From positions 1 to 4,748 of the IMG/VR virus record IMGVR_UViG_2582580933_000017: a DNA stretch of 4,748 nt; one strand, 5' to 3'. The translations under genes were made by a program, and so were the position numbers. How positions within the stretch are numbered: position 1 is the stretch's first letter; each line of letters begins with the position of its first letter. Below, in pieces: positions 1-4,748 of this stretch. The notes under the pieces are model-generated. The model was not told the DNA's origin, made no database searches, and saw only the letters and a program-made list of their open reading frames with translations. Source of the DNA: a virus (lineage: Duplodnaviria > Heunggongvirae > Uroviricota > Caudoviricetes).

Positions 1-99
1 TTCCGCTTCTTCTGCTGGCAGTACAACGTTGCTACCAGGTCCGTATGTTTCGCGCCACTGCTTGATTGTCAGTAGTCGCTCTTTGGTAATAGTGATCAT
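1..99 (-). CDS. hypothetical protein, N-terminal fragment (gene continues beyond the left edge)
   Basis: Minus-strand ATG at 99..97 overlaps the TGA stop (98..96) of the upstream gene (ATGA). A purine-rich AAGGAA lies about 8 nt upstream. The frame stays open for 33 codons to position 1 (MITITKERLLTIKQWRETYGPGSNVVLPAEEAE...). No family recognised. Confidence 0.45.
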   Translation of the reverse strand, partial: MITITKERLLTIKQWRETYGPGSNVVLPAEEAE

Positions 100-611
100 G
101 CCGCGTTTCCTTCTTTCTTATTAACAATTACACCGTCATATATTTCATTAAGGTGCCCTCTCAACTCCATGCGCCTTAATGCAGATAACATGTAATCGCA
201 TTCAACCTGCTTATTTCCAGTAAATGGCTTATCGTCAGGATTACCCCAACAGCAATTACCCTTGGGCCACCCATGTACTTTCCGTACTCTTCCGTTAACA
301 ACGTGAAGTAATCCCCAGCCAGGTGGTAAATCCTCAACTGAAATAATTCCCGGCTCACTAATAAAGAATCGCCAGTCGCCCATTCCAAGAGATGGATTTT
401 TACGAAAACGCTTTTTTCTATCTGCCAACAAGTCAGCACGAGAACACTTCGCCTCTATCAGGCATGATGCTGAATTTCTGAATCCCATAGCATCTGGCTG
501 TTCTCCGGTACTGGTTACAGCTATAAAGCGGTCATGAAAACAAACCTTGAACCCGTTGCGCTTAAGGAACTTATACGCAATCTGACAGAGTTCGCGGTGT
601 GTTAACGCCAT
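96..611 (-). CDS. PD-(D/E)xK nuclease-fold protein (restriction-endonuclease-like), 171 aa
   Basis: ORF-track frame 96..683, trimmed to the ATG at 611..609, which has an AAGGAGAG Shine-Dalgarno 4 nt upstream and sits 1 nt after the upstream stop (TGATATG). The protein (MALTHRELCQIAYKFLKRNGFKVCFHDRFIAVTSTGEQPDAMGFRNSASCLIEAKCS...) has a helix-then-strands N-terminus and a PD...(E)xK signature (QPD followed 12 residues later by EAK). Fold call is by motif only. Confidence 0.7.
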   Translation of the reverse strand: MALTHRELCQIAYKFLKRNGFKVCFHDRFIAVTSTGEQPDAMGFRNSASCLIEAKCSRADLLADRKKRFRKNPSLGMGDWRFFISEPGIISVEDLPPGWGLLHVVNGRVRKVHGWPKGNCCWGNPDDKPFTGNKQVECDYMLSALRRMELRGHLNEIYDGVIVNKKEGNAA

Positions 612-612
612 A

Positions 613-801
613 TCACTCTCCTTTAGTGCGCAAGTGGTTTTTCCAGCGGTTTTGCGCCGCGCTGGGCTTTTTGCAAAAACCACAATCCATCATCCCGTAA
701 TATTTCATCAACCCCATCCGTCGGTTGCTGAGTCTCACCCACTGCCAGACGCCAGGAGCGTTTCTACGAACTAACAGAATCTTTGCTTTACGGTTTTTCA
801 T
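613..801 (-). CDS. small basic hypothetical protein, 62 aa (MKNRKAK family, copy 1)
   Basis: ORF-track ORF. Its ATG (801..799) overlaps the stop of the upstream paralogue (ATGA). Its C-terminus ...RTKGE is encoded by AAAGGAGAG, which doubles as the Shine-Dalgarno for the next gene. Lys/Arg-rich. Paralogous to 798..974. Confidence 0.55.
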   Translation of the reverse strand: MKNRKAKILLVRRNAPGVWQWVRLSNRRMGLMKYYGMMDCGFCKKPSAAQNRWKNHLRTKGE

Positions 802-802
802 C
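782..802. repeat. 21-bp near-exact direct repeat (copy 1) at the start of the MKNRKAK paralogues; second copy at 955..975
   Basis: TTACGGTTTTTCATC is identical at 788..802 and 961..975, extended by TTTGC(T/C) upstream (1 mismatch in 21). It corresponds to the ATGAAAAACCGTAA (MKNRK) starts of the two tandem paralogues on the minus strand. Confidence 0.75.
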
Positions 803-974
803 TTACAGCGTACCCTTTCTTCCGCCTGTTCTGTGACGCAGTAGGCTTACGCTTTGCGGCAAAAGCCACCTGACCAAATGGATGGAGTACCGCTATCTTA
901 TGGTTGCTAATAACCAGCTCCACCACACGCACAGGTCGCTGTAAAAAAAGTCGTTTTGCCTTACGGTTTTTCAT
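798..974 (-). CDS. small basic hypothetical protein, 58 aa (MKNRKAK family, copy 2)
   Basis: Not in the ORF track (below cutoff); found by manual translation: MKNRKAKRLFLQRPVRVVELVISNHKIAVLHPFGQVAFAAKRKPTASQNRRKKGYAVR. ATG at 974..972 with AGGAGA 8 nt upstream; stop TGA at 800..798. Shares the N-terminal MKNRKAK and the C-terminal KP(T/S)A(S/A)QNR(R/W)K motif with the 613..801 product. The DNA has a matching 15-bp exact repeat at both start sites. Confidence 0.5.
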   Translation of the reverse strand: MKNRKAKRLFLQRPVRVVELVISNHKIAVLHPFGQVAFAAKRKPTASQNRRKKGYAVR

Positions 975-1147
975 CGCTTTGCTCTCCTGCGTCTCTTTGC
1001 TGCTCGTCGTGCCGCTGCAATACCGGTATGGCGGCGCTTTGGTGCTGGGGTGATGTTGTCAGCCATCAGGACCTGTGGCTTTGCAATTAGCGCAGAAGCC
1101 CAAAAACGAGTCGGGTACGGTAACAAGCCGATACATGCCACACGCAT
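971..1147 (-). CDS. small hypothetical protein, 58 aa, with a poly-Arg/Lys C-terminal tail
   Basis: Not in the ORF track; found by manual translation: MRVACIGLLPYPTRFWASALIAKPQVLMADNITPAPKRRHTGIAAARRAAKRRRRAKR. ATG at 1147..1145 with a canonical AAGGAGG Shine-Dalgarno 6 nt upstream, overlapping the upstream TAA (TAATG). Stop TGA at 973..971 overlaps the next ATG (ATGA). It fills what would otherwise look like a 170-bp intergenic gap. An internal in-frame ATG at 1066 is an alternative start. Confidence 0.45.
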   Translation of the reverse strand: MRVACIGLLPYPTRFWASALIAKPQVLMADNITPAPKRRHTGIAAARRAAKRRRRAKR

Positions 1148-1635
1148 TACTCACCTCCTTTGATGCGAATGCCTGTTGCAATGCTGTTTATGATGCTGTC
1201 AGTGCATGGGGTAGAAAGCTGGGCATCTCCAGCAATTTTCATGACATCAACATCTGCATATCGAATACCGAGGTGTATCAGACCGGCTATACCTGACTTA
1301 AGCCGAGCATTTTCCATAAACAGATCCTTTGCCCGCTGTTTTTCTGCCTCAAGCTCAACGCGCAACTTCCCTACCGTTAGCGCAATATCCTCGTTCTCCT
1401 GATCGCGGGATTTGATGTATTGCTGGTTTCTTTCCCGTTCATCCAGTAGTGCCAGCACGGTTTCTGGTCCGGCCAGAAATTTGAAGGCGTTGAGCGCATC
1501 AATATCCACACCGTAATCTTTAAGTTCCTGTTCACTTAACAAATCATCATCAGCTGGCAACATTAACAGGCGTTCCATTGCTGGAATTGCACGTTCCGCC
1601 GCCTCACGCAGTGCCTGATAGTCAATCTTGCTCAC
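1147..1635 (-). CDS. coiled-coil phage protein, resembles the Ead/Ea22-like family (from memory, unverified)
   Basis: ORF-track ORF of 162 aa. GTG start at 1635..1633 preceded by AAGGAGGCAACCA, overlapping the upstream stop (GTGA). N-terminus SKIDYQALREAAERA and a charged coiled-coil-like middle (ERERNQQYIKSRDQENEDIALTVGKLRVELEAEKQRAKDL). C-terminus ...IKGGE is encoded by AAAGGAGGTGAG, which gives the Shine-Dalgarno for the next gene. Confidence 0.65.
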   Translation of the reverse strand: MSKIDYQALREAAERAIPAMERLLMLPADDDLLSEQELKDYGVDIDALNAFKFLAGPETVLALLDERERNQQYIKSRDQENEDIALTVGKLRVELEAEKQRAKDLFMENARLKSGIAGLIHLGIRYADVDVMKIAGDAQLSTPCTDSIINSIATGIRIKGGE

Positions 1636-1648
1636 TGGTTGCCTCCTT
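1631..1648. repeat. 18-bp exact direct repeat (copy 1) at a gene junction; second copy at 1951..1968
   Basis: CTCACTGGTTGCCTCCTT occurs at 1631..1648 and 1951..1968, with imperfect similarity for about 19 more bp (13 of 19 match). On the minus strand each copy encodes the end of one gene (GGNQ stop), an AAGGAGG Shine-Dalgarno and the GTG start of the next. Confidence 0.8.
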
Positions 1649-1955
1649 TTCGAAGCTGGGCGGCGATATCTTCGAGAACGCCATCAGAGAATGAGCGGTC
1701 AAAATCGCCTTCCGGCGCATTAGCCATAAACTCAGTAGAGGTAAGAATCATCCGGGCAATATCCGCGGCGTTCTTCGCGGTATCATCAATAAAACCAGCT
1801 TCCCAGGCAGCCAGCATTCTGTTCGCCACAAAATAAGCGCCTTCCTTGCGTGCTTCAGTCTTCACTTCAGCTAGAAAAGCATCGGTATGGCAATGGAATG
1901 AGGCGTTATTACCCACAATTTCACGCAAGCACATCATGTAAAAACGGTTACTCAC
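1632..1955 (-). CDS. hypothetical protein, 107 aa
   Basis: ORF-track frame 1632..1991, trimmed to the GTG at 1955..1953, which has the same AAGGAGGCAACCAGTGAG context as the next gene and overlaps the upstream stop (GTGA). The ATG at 1991 has only a poorly spaced GGGAG and would overlap the upstream gene by about 40 nt. C-terminus ...IAAQLRKGGNQ is shared with the 1952..2191 product. Confidence 0.6.
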   Translation of the reverse strand: MSNRFYMMCLREIVGNNASFHCHTDAFLAEVKTEARKEGAYFVANRMLAAWEAGFIDDTAKNAADIARMILTSTEFMANAPEGDFDRSFSDGVLEDIAAQLRKGGNQ

Positions 1956-1968
1956 TGGTTGCCTCCTT
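1951..1968. repeat. 18-bp exact direct repeat (copy 2) at a gene junction
   Basis: Same sequence as 1631..1648; see that entry. Confidence 0.8.
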
Positions 1969-2191
1969 GGCGGAGTTGCGCTGCGATGCATGAAAAAAAA
2001 GACTCCCGAGTGTGACAGTTAAGAGCTGGTGCGAACGCCGCGTTAAGAACGGCGGCATCACAGCCGTCATCAATATAGAGCGCAATTTTTTTCTCCAGGC
2101 GCGCTTTGGCTTCCTGCAACTGCATACCCCGGCACGCACGCGGGATATAATCAGCAATTTGAGCGATAGCTTTTTCGTTCTGTTTAAACAT
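1952..2191 (-). CDS. hypothetical protein, 79 aa
   Basis: ORF-track ORF. ATG at 2191..2189 with GAGGTG 4 nt upstream, overlapping the end of the upstream gene by 8 nt. C-terminus ...IAAQLRQGGNQ; its last codons CAAGGAGGCAACCAGTGA carry the Shine-Dalgarno and GTG start of the next gene. Confidence 0.55.
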   Translation of the reverse strand: MFKQNEKAIAQIADYIPRACRGMQLQEAKARLEKKIALYIDDGCDAAVLNAAFAPALNCHTRESFFSCIAAQLRQGGNQ

Positions 2192-2387
2192 GCTTCACCT
2201 CGATAGGCTTGATGGTGTCTAACAGCAGTCGGCGGCGCGTATTTTCTGCAAAATGGCGGCGTCCAGTTTCTTTGTGGTAAAACTCGTTTTTGCCAACGAC
2301 CCACATCCGCTCTGTTTGGTGCAGTTTTTTTACCTTCGGGCCATCTTTGGTGATCACGGTACCGGTATGGGTTTTTACGATTGTCAT
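2184..2387 (-). CDS. hypothetical protein, 67 aa
   Basis: ORF-track ORF. ATG at 2387..2385 overlaps the TGA of the PAPS-reductase-like gene (ATGA), with GAAGAGG upstream. Basic protein (MTIVKTHTGTVITKDGPKVKKLHQTERMWVVGKNEFYHKETGRRHF...). No family recognised. Confidence 0.55.
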   Translation of the reverse strand: MTIVKTHTGTVITKDGPKVKKLHQTERMWVVGKNEFYHKETGRRHFAENTRRRLLLDTIKPIEVKHV

Positions 2388-3262
2388 TCCACTACCTCTT
2401 CGAATTTCAACTCCAATTGGTCACCCCAGATTTCACATGATTCGGAACACGAACCAGTATCAAACCGCTTGGCCAGCACCATCGCCTGATACAAATTTCT
2501 GTAGTCACTGTCGGCATACATTCTGGCAATCCCGTCAAGCGTCAGGTGGCCACGGTACATAACGTCTTTACCTGTTCTGCGATGACCATCCCTGACGTGT
2601 TTGCCTGTAACCAGTTCATTAAAAACCCGCATCAGACCTGGTTCGTCTTTACATGCAAGCCCCAGCTTTTGCGTTGACTTTTTGATGCAAAAAACACAGT
2701 TCCCGAGGTGCTCCGGGATTTGCAAATCAAAAGGTTGTTTTCGCCACCACCGGATAACATCCGACTTATCAAAATCTGACAGTTCGGCAAGATACCGGAC
2801 GCCCGGTTTCGGTTTCAGCCTACGGGGTTCGTCCGCACGAATACCCAGCCATGTGATGTAATTCCCTCGCCCAAAATGGTCATCGCAATATTTCGTGAAA
2901 GGGGTGAGTTTTAGCCTGTCAGTACAGAACGCGCCGCCGATGTATGGCGTACCGTACTTTTTAACCATGTCCATAAACGGTTTAAGCACCGGCATTCGCG
3001 TCTGAATATCCTTTGGTTCCCATTCCGTATAACCATTTGGCTGCCCAATTTCTGGATTTATATCGACCTGCAACACCGTTAGCGGTACGTTCCAGAACTT
3101 CACAACCTCACGAATAAAGCGATACGTCAGAGGATGTTCACAGCCGGTATCCATAAAAATGAAATGGACGCTAGCGCCAGCTTTTCGCTGTGCTTCCATC
3201 AGATGAACGAGATAAGCCGATGTTCGTCCACCTGAAAAGCTGACGACTTGATGCATACTCAC
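2384..3262 (-). CDS. phosphoadenosine phosphosulfate (PAPS) reductase family protein, PP-loop ATP pyrophosphatase fold (CysH/DndC-like)
   Basis: ORF-track ORF of 292 aa. N-terminal PP-loop VVSFSGGRTSAY (SGGxxS). The stretch FMDTGCEHPLTYRFIREV matches the CysH-family DTG...ETYRFI region. C-terminal cysteines (GNCVFC and GSCSESC) could bind a metal or Fe-S cluster. Start is GTG at 3262 (AGGA 7 nt upstream) or ATG at 3256; both in frame. Confidence 0.85.
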   Translation of the reverse strand: MSMHQVVSFSGGRTSAYLVHLMEAQRKAGASVHFIFMDTGCEHPLTYRFIREVVKFWNVPLTVLQVDINPEIGQPNGYTEWEPKDIQTRMPVLKPFMDMVKKYGTPYIGGAFCTDRLKLTPFTKYCDDHFGRGNYITWLGIRADEPRRLKPKPGVRYLAELSDFDKSDVIRWWRKQPFDLQIPEHLGNCVFCIKKSTQKLGLACKDEPGLMRVFNELVTGKHVRDGHRRTGKDVMYRGHLTLDGIARMYADSDYRNLYQAMVLAKRFDTGSCSESCEIWGDQLELKFEEVVE

Positions 3263-3265
3263 GGT

Positions 3266-3844
3266 TTATTCCTGAATGCGCTTAAACTCGATTACCCATA
3301 CCAACGGGTTAGATAGCCAGTTATCCTGCCCGTAAATACTGCGCCAGATATCACCAAAACCAACGCGATAAACAGCTTCAGATGGCGTAATCTTGTACGT
3401 CGCCGGAGTTGCGCCTTCTGCTTTAGCATCTGCCTCGCTCATGTCATGCAGCCGTTCCACACGCACGTCGGTAATTTCCAGAAGAATGCGCGATGCCCAG
3501 CGCGGCATGTGAATTGATGGCGTCCACTTTTCTGATACTGGTTTATTACAAACCTCGACCGGAACCCGGTGCGTTTGTTCTGTCCAGGAGTTACGCACGC
3601 TTGCGCGATAAACCAGCGTTGCGACGTCCGTCGCTTTGCCATGTACCCGGTAGGTTTCGCGAACCCAAATACGATCGCCCGGTTGACCATATGGACAATG
3701 CTTGGCAAGCAACTCTGCGGCCACTGCCCGTCCATAGAATTTTTCTTCAACAATCCTGCGAGTCTGTGTTTTATTCCCGCCAAGAATTGCCCGGACCATC
3801 TCATCGTTAAAAATCATGCCGCGCTCTTTCACTTCGCCTTTCAT
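3266..3844 (-). CDS. ASCH-domain protein (PUA-like fold), YqfB-like ends with a large internal insertion
   Basis: ORF-track ORF of 192 aa. N-terminal ILGGNKTQTRR matches the ASCH GxKxxExR-type motif (recalled E. coli YqfB: ILAGRKTITIRD). C-terminal VWVIEFKRI matches the YqfB end FYVIEFKCL. ATG at 3844 has an AAGGGGGA Shine-Dalgarno; an alternative in-frame start is the ATG at 3817 (MIFNDEM...), where the ASCH alignment begins. Confidence 0.75.
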   Translation of the reverse strand: MKGEVKERGMIFNDEMVRAILGGNKTQTRRIVEEKFYGRAVAAELLAKHCPYGQPGDRIWVRETYRVHGKATDVATLVYRASVRNSWTEQTHRVPVEVCNKPVSEKWTPSIHMPRWASRILLEITDVRVERLHDMSEADAKAEGATPATYKITPSEAVYRVGFGDIWRSIYGQDNWLSNPLVWVIEFKRIQE

Positions 3845-3853
3845 ACATCCCCC

Positions 3854-3940
3854 TTACCCATGTGCGACGATGCCGCCAAAAGTGATAGAGAACAGCCAGA
3901 AATAGATCGCGGCCATAATGATTTTGAATGCCGTGTTCAT
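3854..3940 (-). CDS. small hydrophobic (single predicted transmembrane helix) peptide, 28 aa
   Basis: Not in the ORF track; found by manual translation: MNTAFKIIMAAIYFWLFSITFGGIVAHG. ATG at 3940..3938 with AGGAG 8 nt upstream (3953..3949). Stop TAA at 3856..3854; its last codons plus GGGGGA form the Shine-Dalgarno of the ASCH gene 9 nt downstream. Confidence 0.45.
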   Translation of the reverse strand: MNTAFKIIMAAIYFWLFSITFGGIVAHG

Positions 3941-3967
3941 ATTTTCAGCTCCTGTGATTGATTGGAT

Positions 3968-3999
3968 ACATGCCGCGCCTTGCGGCATGTTTTAATTTT
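3968..3999 (+). terminator. plus-strand-oriented intrinsic-terminator-like hairpin (also a perfect palindrome that could be an operator)
   Basis: Perfect 9-bp inverted repeat ACATGCCGC (3968..3976) / GCGGCATGT (3982..3990) with loop GCCTT, followed on the plus strand by TTTAATTTTC. No T-tract follows it on the minus strand. It lies in the gap between the HAD gene stop (4039) and the small-peptide Shine-Dalgarno (3953). Confidence 0.4.
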
Positions 4000-4023
4000 C
4001 ACTTTCTCTGTTTTAAAAATCAA
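3995..4023 (-). promoter_or_regulatory. candidate sigma70-type promoter for the minus-strand genes downstream
   Basis: On the minus strand: TTGATT (4023..4018), a 17-nt AT-rich spacer, then GAAAAT (4000..3995). This would start transcription at or inside the palindrome at 3968..3990. Weak consensus match (4/6 and 4/6); not verified. Confidence 0.25.
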
Positions 4024-4038
4024 GATTTATTAGAGCAA

Positions 4039-4545
4039 TTATTGTTGATGAAGAAGTGCATTTTCATATTCCCTGACCATTAACGTAAGTACGCCGTGAC
4101 TCCTGAAAACACGCGCCACTTCAATCTTATCTTCCAGCGCGAACGCAATTTTACTTAGACCAATTTTCTTCAGGAGATCAATCTTTGCAGGGCCGTCATT
4201 TCTGTCATCGGTGGCAGGACGCATAGATAGCAAAGGCTCAGCCCCATTTGTTACGTGCTTACGCAGCCAGGCTCGTGTTTTATCCCTTGCGATCTCACAG
4301 CGCCCGGTTACAAACCAGACCGTGTAAACGTTAAATAACTGGCGCACCATATCAATAACCGGAGTGATGGGAGTATCGGTGTCACAGGCGAGATTAAACT
4401 CGTTCCAGTCCTTTGTTAATGCACCTTTACCTGGTGGCGGAAGCAAATGCAGTCTGTCTTCAGTTGCCTCTGATATTGTTCCATCAATATCGACTATGAC
4501 GATATACGGACGTTCCTGGTGTGCGTGTTTATTGAAAATACTCAA
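4039..4545 (-). CDS. HAD-superfamily phosphatase (nucleotidase or polynucleotide 3'-phosphatase-like)
   Basis: ORF-track ORF of 168 aa. HAD motif I IVIVDIDGT (DxDGT) near the N-terminus and a motif II-like VWFVTGR. Start is TTG at 4545..4543 with a GAGGAGGG Shine-Dalgarno 3-4 nt upstream; there is no in-frame ATG further upstream. Confidence 0.75.
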   Translation of the reverse strand: MSIFNKHAHQERPYIVIVDIDGTISEATEDRLHLLPPPGKGALTKDWNEFNLACDTDTPITPVIDMVRQLFNVYTVWFVTGRCEIARDKTRAWLRKHVTNGAEPLLSMRPATDDRNDGPAKIDLLKKIGLSKIAFALEDKIEVARVFRSHGVLTLMVREYENALLHQQ

Positions 4546-4563
4546 ATGCCCTCCTCATTGGAC

Positions 4564-4598
4564 GAAAAAAATGCTGGTGGGCGCACTCCACCAGCATT
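4564..4598 (-). terminator. rho-independent terminator, minus-strand orientation
   Basis: Perfect 11-bp inverted repeat AATGCTGGTGG (4570..4580) / CCACCAGCATT (4588..4598) with a 7-nt loop. On the minus strand it is followed by a run of 7 T (plus-strand A-run 4564..4570). It lies between the stop of the upstream partial gene (4618) and the HAD Shine-Dalgarno (4556..4549). Confidence 0.65.
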
Positions 4599-4617
4599 AA
4601 AAGTGACACTGTAACTA

Positions 4618-4748
4618 TCAGCGGACGTAAATAGTGCCGCCGTTCTCTTTTTCCCATGCATCGCTACGTGCATAGCAAACATCGAGAAGTCTTCTTGCCG
4701 CTGTTTCCTCTAAACCCAATTCGACAACCAACTGCTCATGACGGCGGG
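4618..4748 (-). CDS. hypothetical protein, C-terminal fragment (gene begins beyond the right edge)
   Basis: Minus-strand frame open from the window edge for 42 codons (...RRHEQLVVELGLEETAARRLLDVCYARSDAWEKENGGTIYVR) to TGA at 4620..4618, just upstream of the terminator. No family recognised. Confidence 0.45.
   Translation of the reverse strand, partial: RRHEQLVVELGLEETAARRLLDVCYARSDAWEKENGGTIYVR

Follow-up and report, generated by a model that had tools for sequence, protein, structure and literature searches.

Recurrent gene junctions in the variable accessory operon of a P1-like phage-plasmid: coupling-type signals and candidate sites of cassette exchange

Why should two different gene boundaries in one phage operon be built from the same eighteen bases? 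The question is raised by a 4,748-nt stretch of viral DNA (positions 1 to 4,748 of the IMG/VR record IMGVR_UViG_2582580933_000017), the whole of which is referred to below as the window. The window derives from a P1-like phage-plasmid and represents its variable accessory region, probably under C1 control, that follows pmgS-pap. Lambdoid exo-xis-type accessory genes fill it, and all genes are on the minus strand, to which the gene coordinates below refer. As a first-pass annotation of this DNA had reported, the exact 18-bp sequence AAGGAGGCAACCAGTGAG stands at two gene junctions; it occurs exactly twice, both times on the minus strand, at 1968..1951 and 1648..1631. Among the direct repeats of the window it is the longest, and the wider repeat around it (D1) reaches 40 nt at 83% identity. 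By calculation, only ~1.6e-4 pairs of exact 18-mers are expected by chance in 4748 nt. The two copies lie 320 bp apart on the same strand, and at each of them a stop codon and a GTG start overlap. Our answer is that the repeat represents one of two junction families of a variable accessory operon, which would couple the translation of neighboring genes and also act as linkers for crossover. As a full explanation, we give this reading a probability of roughly 0.65.

The junction, termed here junction A, has the general form (CGN)AAAGGAGGCAACCAGTGAG. Copy 1 (1948..1987, exact core 1968..1951) comprises the final 12 codons of open reading frame 5 (ORF5), which read CIAAQLRQGGNQ before the stop, the Shine-Dalgarno (SD) sequence AAGGAGG, a 6-nt spacer, and the GTG at 1955. 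Copy 2 (1628..1667, exact core 1648..1631) comprises the final 12 codons of ORF6, DIAAQLRKGGNQ before the stop, the SD, and the GTG at 1635 of an Ead/Ea22-like gene. In both copies the upstream frame crosses the perfect SD as ..K-G-G-N-Q and ends at a TGA overlapping the GTG start, so that stop and start share the 4 nt GTGA (1955/1952 and 1635/1632). In the six codons before GGA, the copies differ by five synonymous changes and a Q/K difference, and after GTGAG they are unrelated. A search of the window with a degenerate pattern found no junction-A copies beyond these two. The junction between the ASCH-like and PAPS-reductase-like genes (caggaataaaccGTGAGTATG, 3255-3275, minus strand) resembles a decayed junction A; in the relatives RCS47 and P7, this ASCH 3' end leads into cagggg(g/a)caaccaGTGAG and then into a different gene (3950-3995 in each of the loci L003 and L002).

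The earlier annotation had gone further, describing four consecutive junctions of one recurrent design in which the terminal K-G-G or K-G-E codons of one gene form the SD of the next. All four strings are present on the minus strand, although two had been placed one base off: CAAGGAGGCAACCAGTGA lies at 1969..1952, AAAGGAGGCAACCAGTGA at 1649..1632, AAAGGAGGTGAGTAATG at 1161..1145, and AAAGGAGAGTGATATG at 624..609. They do not, however, represent four separate designs, as two are copies of type A and two are variants of a second type, B; nor are they consecutive, since ATGA-overlap junctions with weaker SDs occur at 974 and 801, between the third and the fourth. The actual protein ends are QGGNQ, KGGNQ, KGGE, and KGE, with K/Q-G-G 3-5 codons from the end, and the overlap of stop and start measures 4 nt (GTGA) at the first two junctions and 1 nt (TAATG) at the third, while the fourth has none (TGA-T-ATG). 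The location of the SD within the upstream gene was described correctly: AAGGAGG stands 6 nt before both GTGs, and AAGGAGGTGA and AAGGAG stand 5-7 nt before the ATGs. Thus, at each junction the stop overlaps the start or lies a few nucleotides from it on the same strand (1955/1952, 1635/1632, 1147, 613/611), and an SD at functional distance is embedded in the upstream coding sequence. The number of AAGGAG hexamers in the window (four) is within chance, being reached in 24 of 200 shuffles; their placement is non-random, each of the four preceding a start codon by 5-9 nt on the coding strand. From junction anatomy alone, translational coupling is plausible, given overlapping or abutting stops and starts, a perfect SD 6 nt from the GTG, and a long operon without intergenic gaps.

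Four observations support the GTG starts proposed at the first pass. RefSeq relatives are annotated with the same 4-nt overlaps, the Ead_Ea22 profile begins at residue 2 of the window protein ORF7, and amino acids are conserved right after the GTG. We collected 44 unique ea22 start contexts by protein similarity to ORF7, independently of the junction sequence; a GTG overlapping TGA (GTGA) is found in 40 of them and an ATG at the same position in the other four. The exact AGGAGGCAACCAGTG is present in ~30 of the 44. Third-codon conservation is 0.92 for the last five upstream codons (K G G N Q), 0.46 for earlier codons of the tail, and 0.74 for ea22 codons 3-16; the high value at the junction implies that the junction A core is constrained at the nucleotide level beyond coding needs. 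In temperate phages of E. coli, the 18-mer is thus the leader for translation initiation across the ead/ea22 family, and a few other cassette genes use it as well. An exact 17-mer was found in at least 120 IMG/VR contigs, and among the matches listed there nearly all copies precede VS(K/E)I(D/N)YQALRE.... In species-representative genomes, the 17-mer gave 65 matches (two of them in Escherichia) against ~69 expected by chance (596 Gb x 2 strands / 4^17), which makes that scan uninformative on the wider distribution. The signal itself may be confined to temperate phages of enterobacteria.

Around junction A, a constant core stands between changing flanks. The IMG/VR matches listed, a set ascertained on the exact 17-mer, yield 127 unique 617-nt contexts, in which 35 upstream and 37 downstream flank clusters occur in 89 combinations around a conserved island of ~-20..+60. 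When two contexts share the downstream but not the upstream flank, their homology stops within 10 nt of the 17-mer in 128 of 173 cases and within 30 nt in 166 of 173; when they share the upstream but not the downstream flank, it stops 17-60 nt past the first base of the 17-mer in 171 of 190. The upstream proteins of the listed matches fall into six mutually unrelated BLAST families that have (R)KGGNQ before the stop in common, the largest being a C-terminal-domain family ending in ..A(A/E)Q(L/I)RKGGNQ. Downstream of the linker we mostly find ea22, but also a gene for a 214-aa protein (VSNRFYMMCL...), upf87.4 (VSESKCQ...), a DUF4752 variant, and others. In P7 and JL22 the linker occupies two or three successive junctions of unrelated genes, and in RCS47 an ASCH-like gene reads it in another frame. 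For junction A, and likewise for the second-type junction B' described below, the same short sequence therefore stands between flanks that are unrelated on both sides in different genomes.

A second line of evidence comes from breakpoints of homology, defined as the ends of high-scoring segment pairs between the window and 23 plasmid and phage relatives chosen by overall similarity alone. Of the 29 breakpoint clusters, 17 fall no more than 35 nt from a gene start, where the share expected from the window is 19% (binomial p = 4e-6). Eleven endpoints fall at 1948-1966 (junction A copy 1), 13 at 1646-1667 (junction A copy 2), seven at 1151-1179 (junction B), and ten at 607-630 (junction B'); among the same 23 relatives, no endpoint at all falls at 2191 or 3844, two junctions that lack a shared linker. 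Homology breakpoints thus coincide with junction sequences, yet 12 of the 29 clusters lie elsewhere. In four relatives, including the locus L006, the interval between the two copies of junction A is missing and ORF5 is joined straight to ea22, with a 37-nt repeat as the sole overlap. This direct joint occurs in at least 53 plasmids, and at least 35 have ORF5 joined to the 214-aa gene. What distinguishes relatives is whole cassettes that end in junctions, and the junctions persist as both sides are exchanged. The initial suggestion that these junctions are plausible sites of module exchange is supported accordingly, the alignment across relatives having come out as it predicted, with breakpoints at the repeats.

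The close spacing of the two 18-mers in the window has a separate origin. ORF6 is an in-frame chimera of the first 23 codons of the 214-aa gene (P7 upf87.6 type) and the last 84 codons of an Ea22-like gene (Ea22-like 1), formed by a 905-nt deletion whose joint at 1887/1886 shows 2-nt (TA) microhomology. As 905 is 2 mod 3, the deletion restored the reading frame. The ancestral-type order (ORF5, 214-aa gene, Ea22-like 1, Ea22-like 2) is seen in nine relatives, with junction A after ORF5 and again after Ea22-like 1; in many relatives ~1.2 kb, comprising two full genes, separates the copies. The ORF6 joint was not found in 72,556 plasmids, 5,426 complete E. coli genomes, or IMG/VR; two matches that seemed to span it in full length were rejected as non-collinear pieces. 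Its absence from all three collections marks it as a private, illegitimate event. Thus, the two 18-mers are 320 bp apart because the deletion remnant ORF6 kept the junctions of two neighboring cassettes; the deletion preserved the frame and both coupling-type junctions around it. The profile phrog_14548 covers an ORF6-like part immediately followed by an ORF7-like part.

The second family, junction B, is the conserved ea22 3' end that carries the SD of the next gene and has the form ..ATCAAAGGAG(GTGAGTA/AGTGAT)ATG. The third and fourth junctions of the window are variants of this one ea22 3' junction, CGCATCAAAGGAG-GTGAGTAATG and CGCACTAAAGGAGAGTGAT-ATG. Junction B (1145..1179) consists of the Ea22 tail codons GIRIKGGE, the SD AAGGAGGTGA, and a TAA overlapping the ATG of ORF8 by 1 nt; in several relatives the ORF8 start is GTG. 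Junction B' (609..630) consists of the ORF10 tail LRTKGE before the stop, the SD AAGGAG, TGA, one base, and the ATG of ORF11. In the window, ORF8-10 stand between the two variants, while P7 and six other relatives lack these genes. At such an empty site, the Ea22 tail GIRIKGE before the stop is followed by junction B' and then by ORF11, which directly follows the Ea22 gene via junction B' in P7 and several plasmids. The filled (window) and empty (P7 and others) states are bounded by CGCATCAAAGGAG / CGCACTAAAGGAG. Junction B' is widespread in IMG/VR, where at least three classes of upstream tails are joined to many types of downstream genes and conservation drops to background just outside ~26 nt. 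Within the insert, ORF9 and ORF10 are small basic paralogues (MKNRKAK...; 37% identity) whose 5' ends form the repeat D2 (975..955 and 802..782; 21 nt, 95% identity). This repeat marks a change in copy number, many relatives being single-copy with the crossover within D2. The 17-mer of the third junction (J3), matching AAAGGAGGTGAGTAATG, is also met in IMG/VR in unrelated phage contexts, for example, after ..LLDLIVKGGE and its stop and before MKELKDLVEG...; the string alone is therefore a generic SD-stop-start solution and not a marker of homology. In enterobacterial contexts, the gene after the J3 form of junction B is ORF8.

The preferred reading would unite these observations as follows. 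The operon, which is packed with cassettes of the lambdoid exo-xis type, probably starts at a C1-repressed promoter. Ribosomes ending at a junction may reinitiate at the weak GTG with the aid of the strong SD, and such reinitiation would couple cassette expression along the operon. The junctions, together with ~60 nt of conserved ea22 5' coding sequence, would offer sites for short-homology crossover by phage Rad52-type recombinases or RecA, and cassettes could be gained, lost, or swapped without breaking the coupling chain. The ancestor carried ORF5, the 214-aa gene, Ea22-like 1, and Ea22-like 2, and the 905-nt deletion left only ORF6 between the type-A junctions. Exchange at short conserved linkers is supported by the comparison of relatives and would have at its disposal 18 nt of exact identity, 40 nt at 83%, and the island of ~-20..+60. 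Short conserved boundary sequences can mediate the exchange of lambdoid modules (Susskind & Botstein 1978 and Clark et al. 2001, the latter on HK620, both cited in PMC3233612 and PMC2327257). Rad52-like phage recombinases can use short or diverged homology (PMC2327257) and recombine it far better than RecA does (PMC3945230).

Several points weigh against this reading. Illegitimate joints filtered by selection would likewise be expected to put breakpoints near gene ends, and the window's own ORF6 joint, with its 2-nt microhomology, is an illegitimate event. In E. coli, RecA-dependent recombination has a minimal efficient pairing segment of ~23-27 bp, and the exact 18-nt core is shorter. The 12 clusters away from gene starts are intragenic, at the Ea22 domain borders (1337-1467), in the ASCH-like gene (3312-3753), and at the ORF6 joint. 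The strong nucleotide conservation of the core could be explained by its function in translation alone. Finally, the relatives share ancestry and the contexts were ascertained on the 17-mer, so that the number of loci cannot be taken as a number of independent events. The comparative data separate homologous exchange at linkers from illegitimate recombination plus selection incompletely.

The latter explanation survives best among the alternatives. It holds that the junctions are conserved purely as initiation and coupling signals, that illegitimate joints arise at random, and that selection keeps the ones at gene ends (the Hendrix model), the linker being a 5' passenger of the downstream gene. 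The origin of ORF6 by a microhomology deletion inside genes is what it would lead one to expect, and the intragenic clusters, the shortness of the junction core, and the J3 17-mer in unrelated phage contexts, where SD-stop-start strings can converge, also speak for it. It is harder to reconcile with the non-essential spacer CAACCA and the synonymous GGNQ positions, conserved at 0.92, above neighboring coding third positions. Besides, the linker precedes unrelated genes (the 214-aa gene, upf87.4, the DUF4752 variant) and hence is more than the 5' end of a single gene family. The repeat-to-repeat alleles, as in L006, and the empty and filled junction-B sites match what homologous crossover predicts, and the linker-less junctions 2191 and 3844 are without breakpoints. 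On balance, we regard explanation by selection among random joints as unlikely, though still a competitor to be taken seriously.

Another possibility is that the C-terminal peptide (I/F)A(A/E)Q(L/I)RKGGNQ is functional itself, for example, as a docking or degradation tag, which would be compatible with linker exchange. This tail is kept at the amino-acid level, with synonymous variation, on proteins without other detectable homology (ORF5, 1952-1987; ORF6, 1632-1667; IMG/VR contexts). Between ORF5 on the one side and ORF6 and the Ea22 C-terminal-domain family on the other, only the last 11-16 residues are shared; homology of ORF5 and ORF6 beyond the tail was looked for and rejected (BLASTP, 11 residues only; hhalign, 0.09% without the tail). 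Selection on the peptide would agree with the differences between the window copies (synonymous except for Q/K in the six codons before GGA), with a three-base periodicity of tail conservation across contexts, and with the alignment of the ORF5 and Ea22 C-terminal-domain families over the last 16 residues only (hhalign probability 94.9%, falling to 0.09% without the tail). However, other upstream families share just (R)KGGNQ or GGNQ, as in NKYLNAMWRKGGNQ and GETGACSYFPGGNQ, the upstream gene of RCS47 reads the junction in a different frame, and no known motif was matched. The short shared tails and the RCS47 frame show that the common denominator is the nucleotide core and not the peptide, and a function of the tail seems doubtful. 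An equally doubtful, more ambitious version would make junction A and the tail a dedicated portable "cassette adaptor" of ~40-80 nt, consisting of ..AAQLRKGGNQ, the SD, GTGA, and conserved ea22 5' codons, the tail having its own function. Such an adaptor would be kept because accessory genes could be inserted through it, in frame, into coupled operons of lambdoid and P1-like phages alike, and the result, if true, would be an integron-like system, operating by general or Rad52-type recombination and translational coupling, without integrase or promoter.

The action of dedicated machinery, be it an integron-like or invertase-type site, a programmed frameshift fusing the upstream protein to Ea22, or a structured RNA, is very improbable. 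The cassette-like organization would suit it, and phrog_14548, spanning ORF6-like and ORF7-like parts, hints at annotated fused versions. Nevertheless, a site-specific or integron-type site, which calls for inverted repeats and a cognate recombinase nearby, was rejected for the window, as the core lacks dyad symmetry, the repeat analysis reported no inverted repeat at the junctions, and the window proteins include no recombinase. Fusion by frameshifting or read-through was rejected as well: ea22 is read in the -1 frame with respect to the upstream gene, and there is neither an X XXY YYZ heptamer nor an RF2-type site. An RNA element was rejected on the grounds that the folds of the four junctions are no more stable than those of shuffles (z -0.67, 0.05, -0.24, and -1.0); an Rfam search of the junction regions gave no match at E <= 1. 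Occlusion of the SD by the QL codons is marginal (0.425 unpaired versus 0.468 in shuffles, p = 0.035, with non-independent tails). A Chi-like hotspot in the junction was also rejected, since the complement ACTGGTTG is two mismatches away from GCTGGTGG and the true Chi sites are elsewhere. Recent local tandem duplication, suggested by identical 18-mers 320 bp apart on the same strand, can hardly be their source, because identity is lost right after GTGAG and amounts to 83% over 40 nt with old-looking synonymous differences, the copies are separate in many relatives with ~1.2 kb of two full genes between them, and the 320-bp spacing results from deletion; given the relatives' gene arrangement and the downstream divergence, the two copies of junction A read as old.

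The genomic setting of the junctions is well defined. The closest matches of the window are P1, P7, RCS47, JL22, and ~1400 P1-type plasmids from Escherichia, Salmonella, Shigella, and Klebsiella. The pmgS-pap flank is 95-97% identical to P1/P7 (over 4748..3753 or 4748..3410) and collinear with P1-type relatives, the region downstream of pap is strongly mosaic, and none of the matching records is collinear with the whole window. In P1-like phage-plasmids, the equivalent of this region is "variable region 8" (PMC9603915). The genes of the variable region (Ead/Ea22, DUF551, DUF4752, eaa) are the gene set of the lambdoid exo-xis, or ea, region. The gene order begins with the 3' end of pmgS, followed by a terminator-like hairpin (4570-4598) and pap, which encodes a phosphatase of the HAD/PNKP type (4545..4039). 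A C1-operator-like site, ATTGCTCTAATAAATCT, occupies 4023..4039 on the minus strand, its first base being the final base of the pap stop codon; the P7 annotation places Op(hea) exactly there. Homologues of pmgS and pap thus form the flank, with the C1-operator-like site at the end of pap. This site probably governs the operon that holds all the junctions, which would then be C1-repressed in the plasmid prophage state. The hairpin contains the Chi octamer GCTGGTGG in both arms, one per strand (4573-4580 on the plus strand, 4595..4588 on the minus strand), and two Chi sites per window were reached in just two of 200 shuffles.

Downstream of pap lie a small membrane ORF, the ASCH-like gene (3844..3266), the PAPS-reductase-like gene (3262/3256..2384), and a gene for 67 aa (2387..2184). 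The ASCH-like gene is itself mosaic, with repeated internal breakpoints at ~3753, 3657, 3410, and 3312 and alleles of 579, 675, and 729 nt in relatives. The head of the operon (2384-4545) thus groups HAD/PNKP-type phosphatase, ASCH-like, and PAPS-reductase-like proteins; the block of PAPS-reductase, 67-aa gene, and ORF5 is also present in Stx phages. ORF5 (79 aa, 1952..2191) belongs to phrog_1344 and is followed by the chimeric ORF6 (107 aa, GTG start, 1632..1955) and by ORF7 (162 aa, GTG start, 1147..1635), which ends in ...GIRIKGGE. ORF7 is a member of the Ead/Ea22 family, with a significant match from the N-terminus to the Pfam profile Ead_Ea22 (PF13935; E 4.6e-33; 115 bits, the cut-off being 27; residues 2-128 aligned to profile positions 1-137). 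The remaining genes are ORF8 (58 aa, 971..1147, phrog_13831), the paralogues ORF9 (974..798) and ORF10 (801..613), ORF11 (171 aa, 96..611, a homologue of P7 upf89.0), and a further gene of which only the start, at 98, is included. For annotation, the practical outcome is the correction of the GTG starts and the recognition of ORF6 as a fusion remnant. Among P1-like phage-plasmids, which spread resistance genes, this region is known as a hotspot of variation.

Comparison with known systems places these junctions among familiar elements. Integron cassettes, bounded by attC, are likewise promoterless, set in one orientation, variable in number, and separated by short recurrent boundaries. This is a functional analogy only: the window has neither an integrase nor an imperfect-palindrome attC, what recurs in it is a translation signal embedded in coding DNA, and its cassettes are presumably exchanged by general or Rad52-type recombination.

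Translational coupling via an overlapping stop and start, with the SD inside the upstream gene, is known from the trp operon and many phage operons. The junctions of the window resemble textbook coupled junctions in the GTGA and TAATG overlaps, the SD 5-6 nt upstream, the GTG with a perfect SD, and the polycistronic operon. In this respect they are ordinary for phage operons; what is unusual here is that the same sequence is reused by many unrelated gene pairs, although the mechanism itself is ordinary.

The ea22 genes are known to be mosaic (PMC10834534). In the exo-xis region of lambda and Stx phages, they have a common N-terminal and coiled-coil part, swappable C-terminal domains, and tandem variants (PMC7093339, PMC10834534), as do their counterparts here. 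These papers treat mosaicism at the protein level, and the junctions, the GTG/GTGA starts, and the ..KGGNQ and ..IRIKG(G)E tails are not described in them as exchange points. Another difference is in location, as ORF7 sits in a P1-like plasmid prophage.

The closest precedent is provided by the boundary, or linker, sequences of lambdoid phages. As summarized in PMC3233612 and PMC2327257, these are short shared junction sequences with exchanged flanks and coincident breakpoints, for which homologous recombination was proposed. The linker of the window differs in lying inside the upstream coding sequence and in providing SD, stop, and start as well; its documented occurrence is with ead/ea22-type cassettes, and lambdoid prophages and the P1-like variable region have it in common. 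A search of the searchable literature for the verbatim junction sequences returned nothing relevant. With junction limits known to the single base and with sequenced plasmids in both the filled and the empty state, the models of homologous exchange and of illegitimate recombination plus selection become directly testable. In summary, the junctions illustrate the known linker idea rather than a new kind of element, and they provide a concrete, sequence-defined, and widespread example for the old linker model of phage mosaicism.

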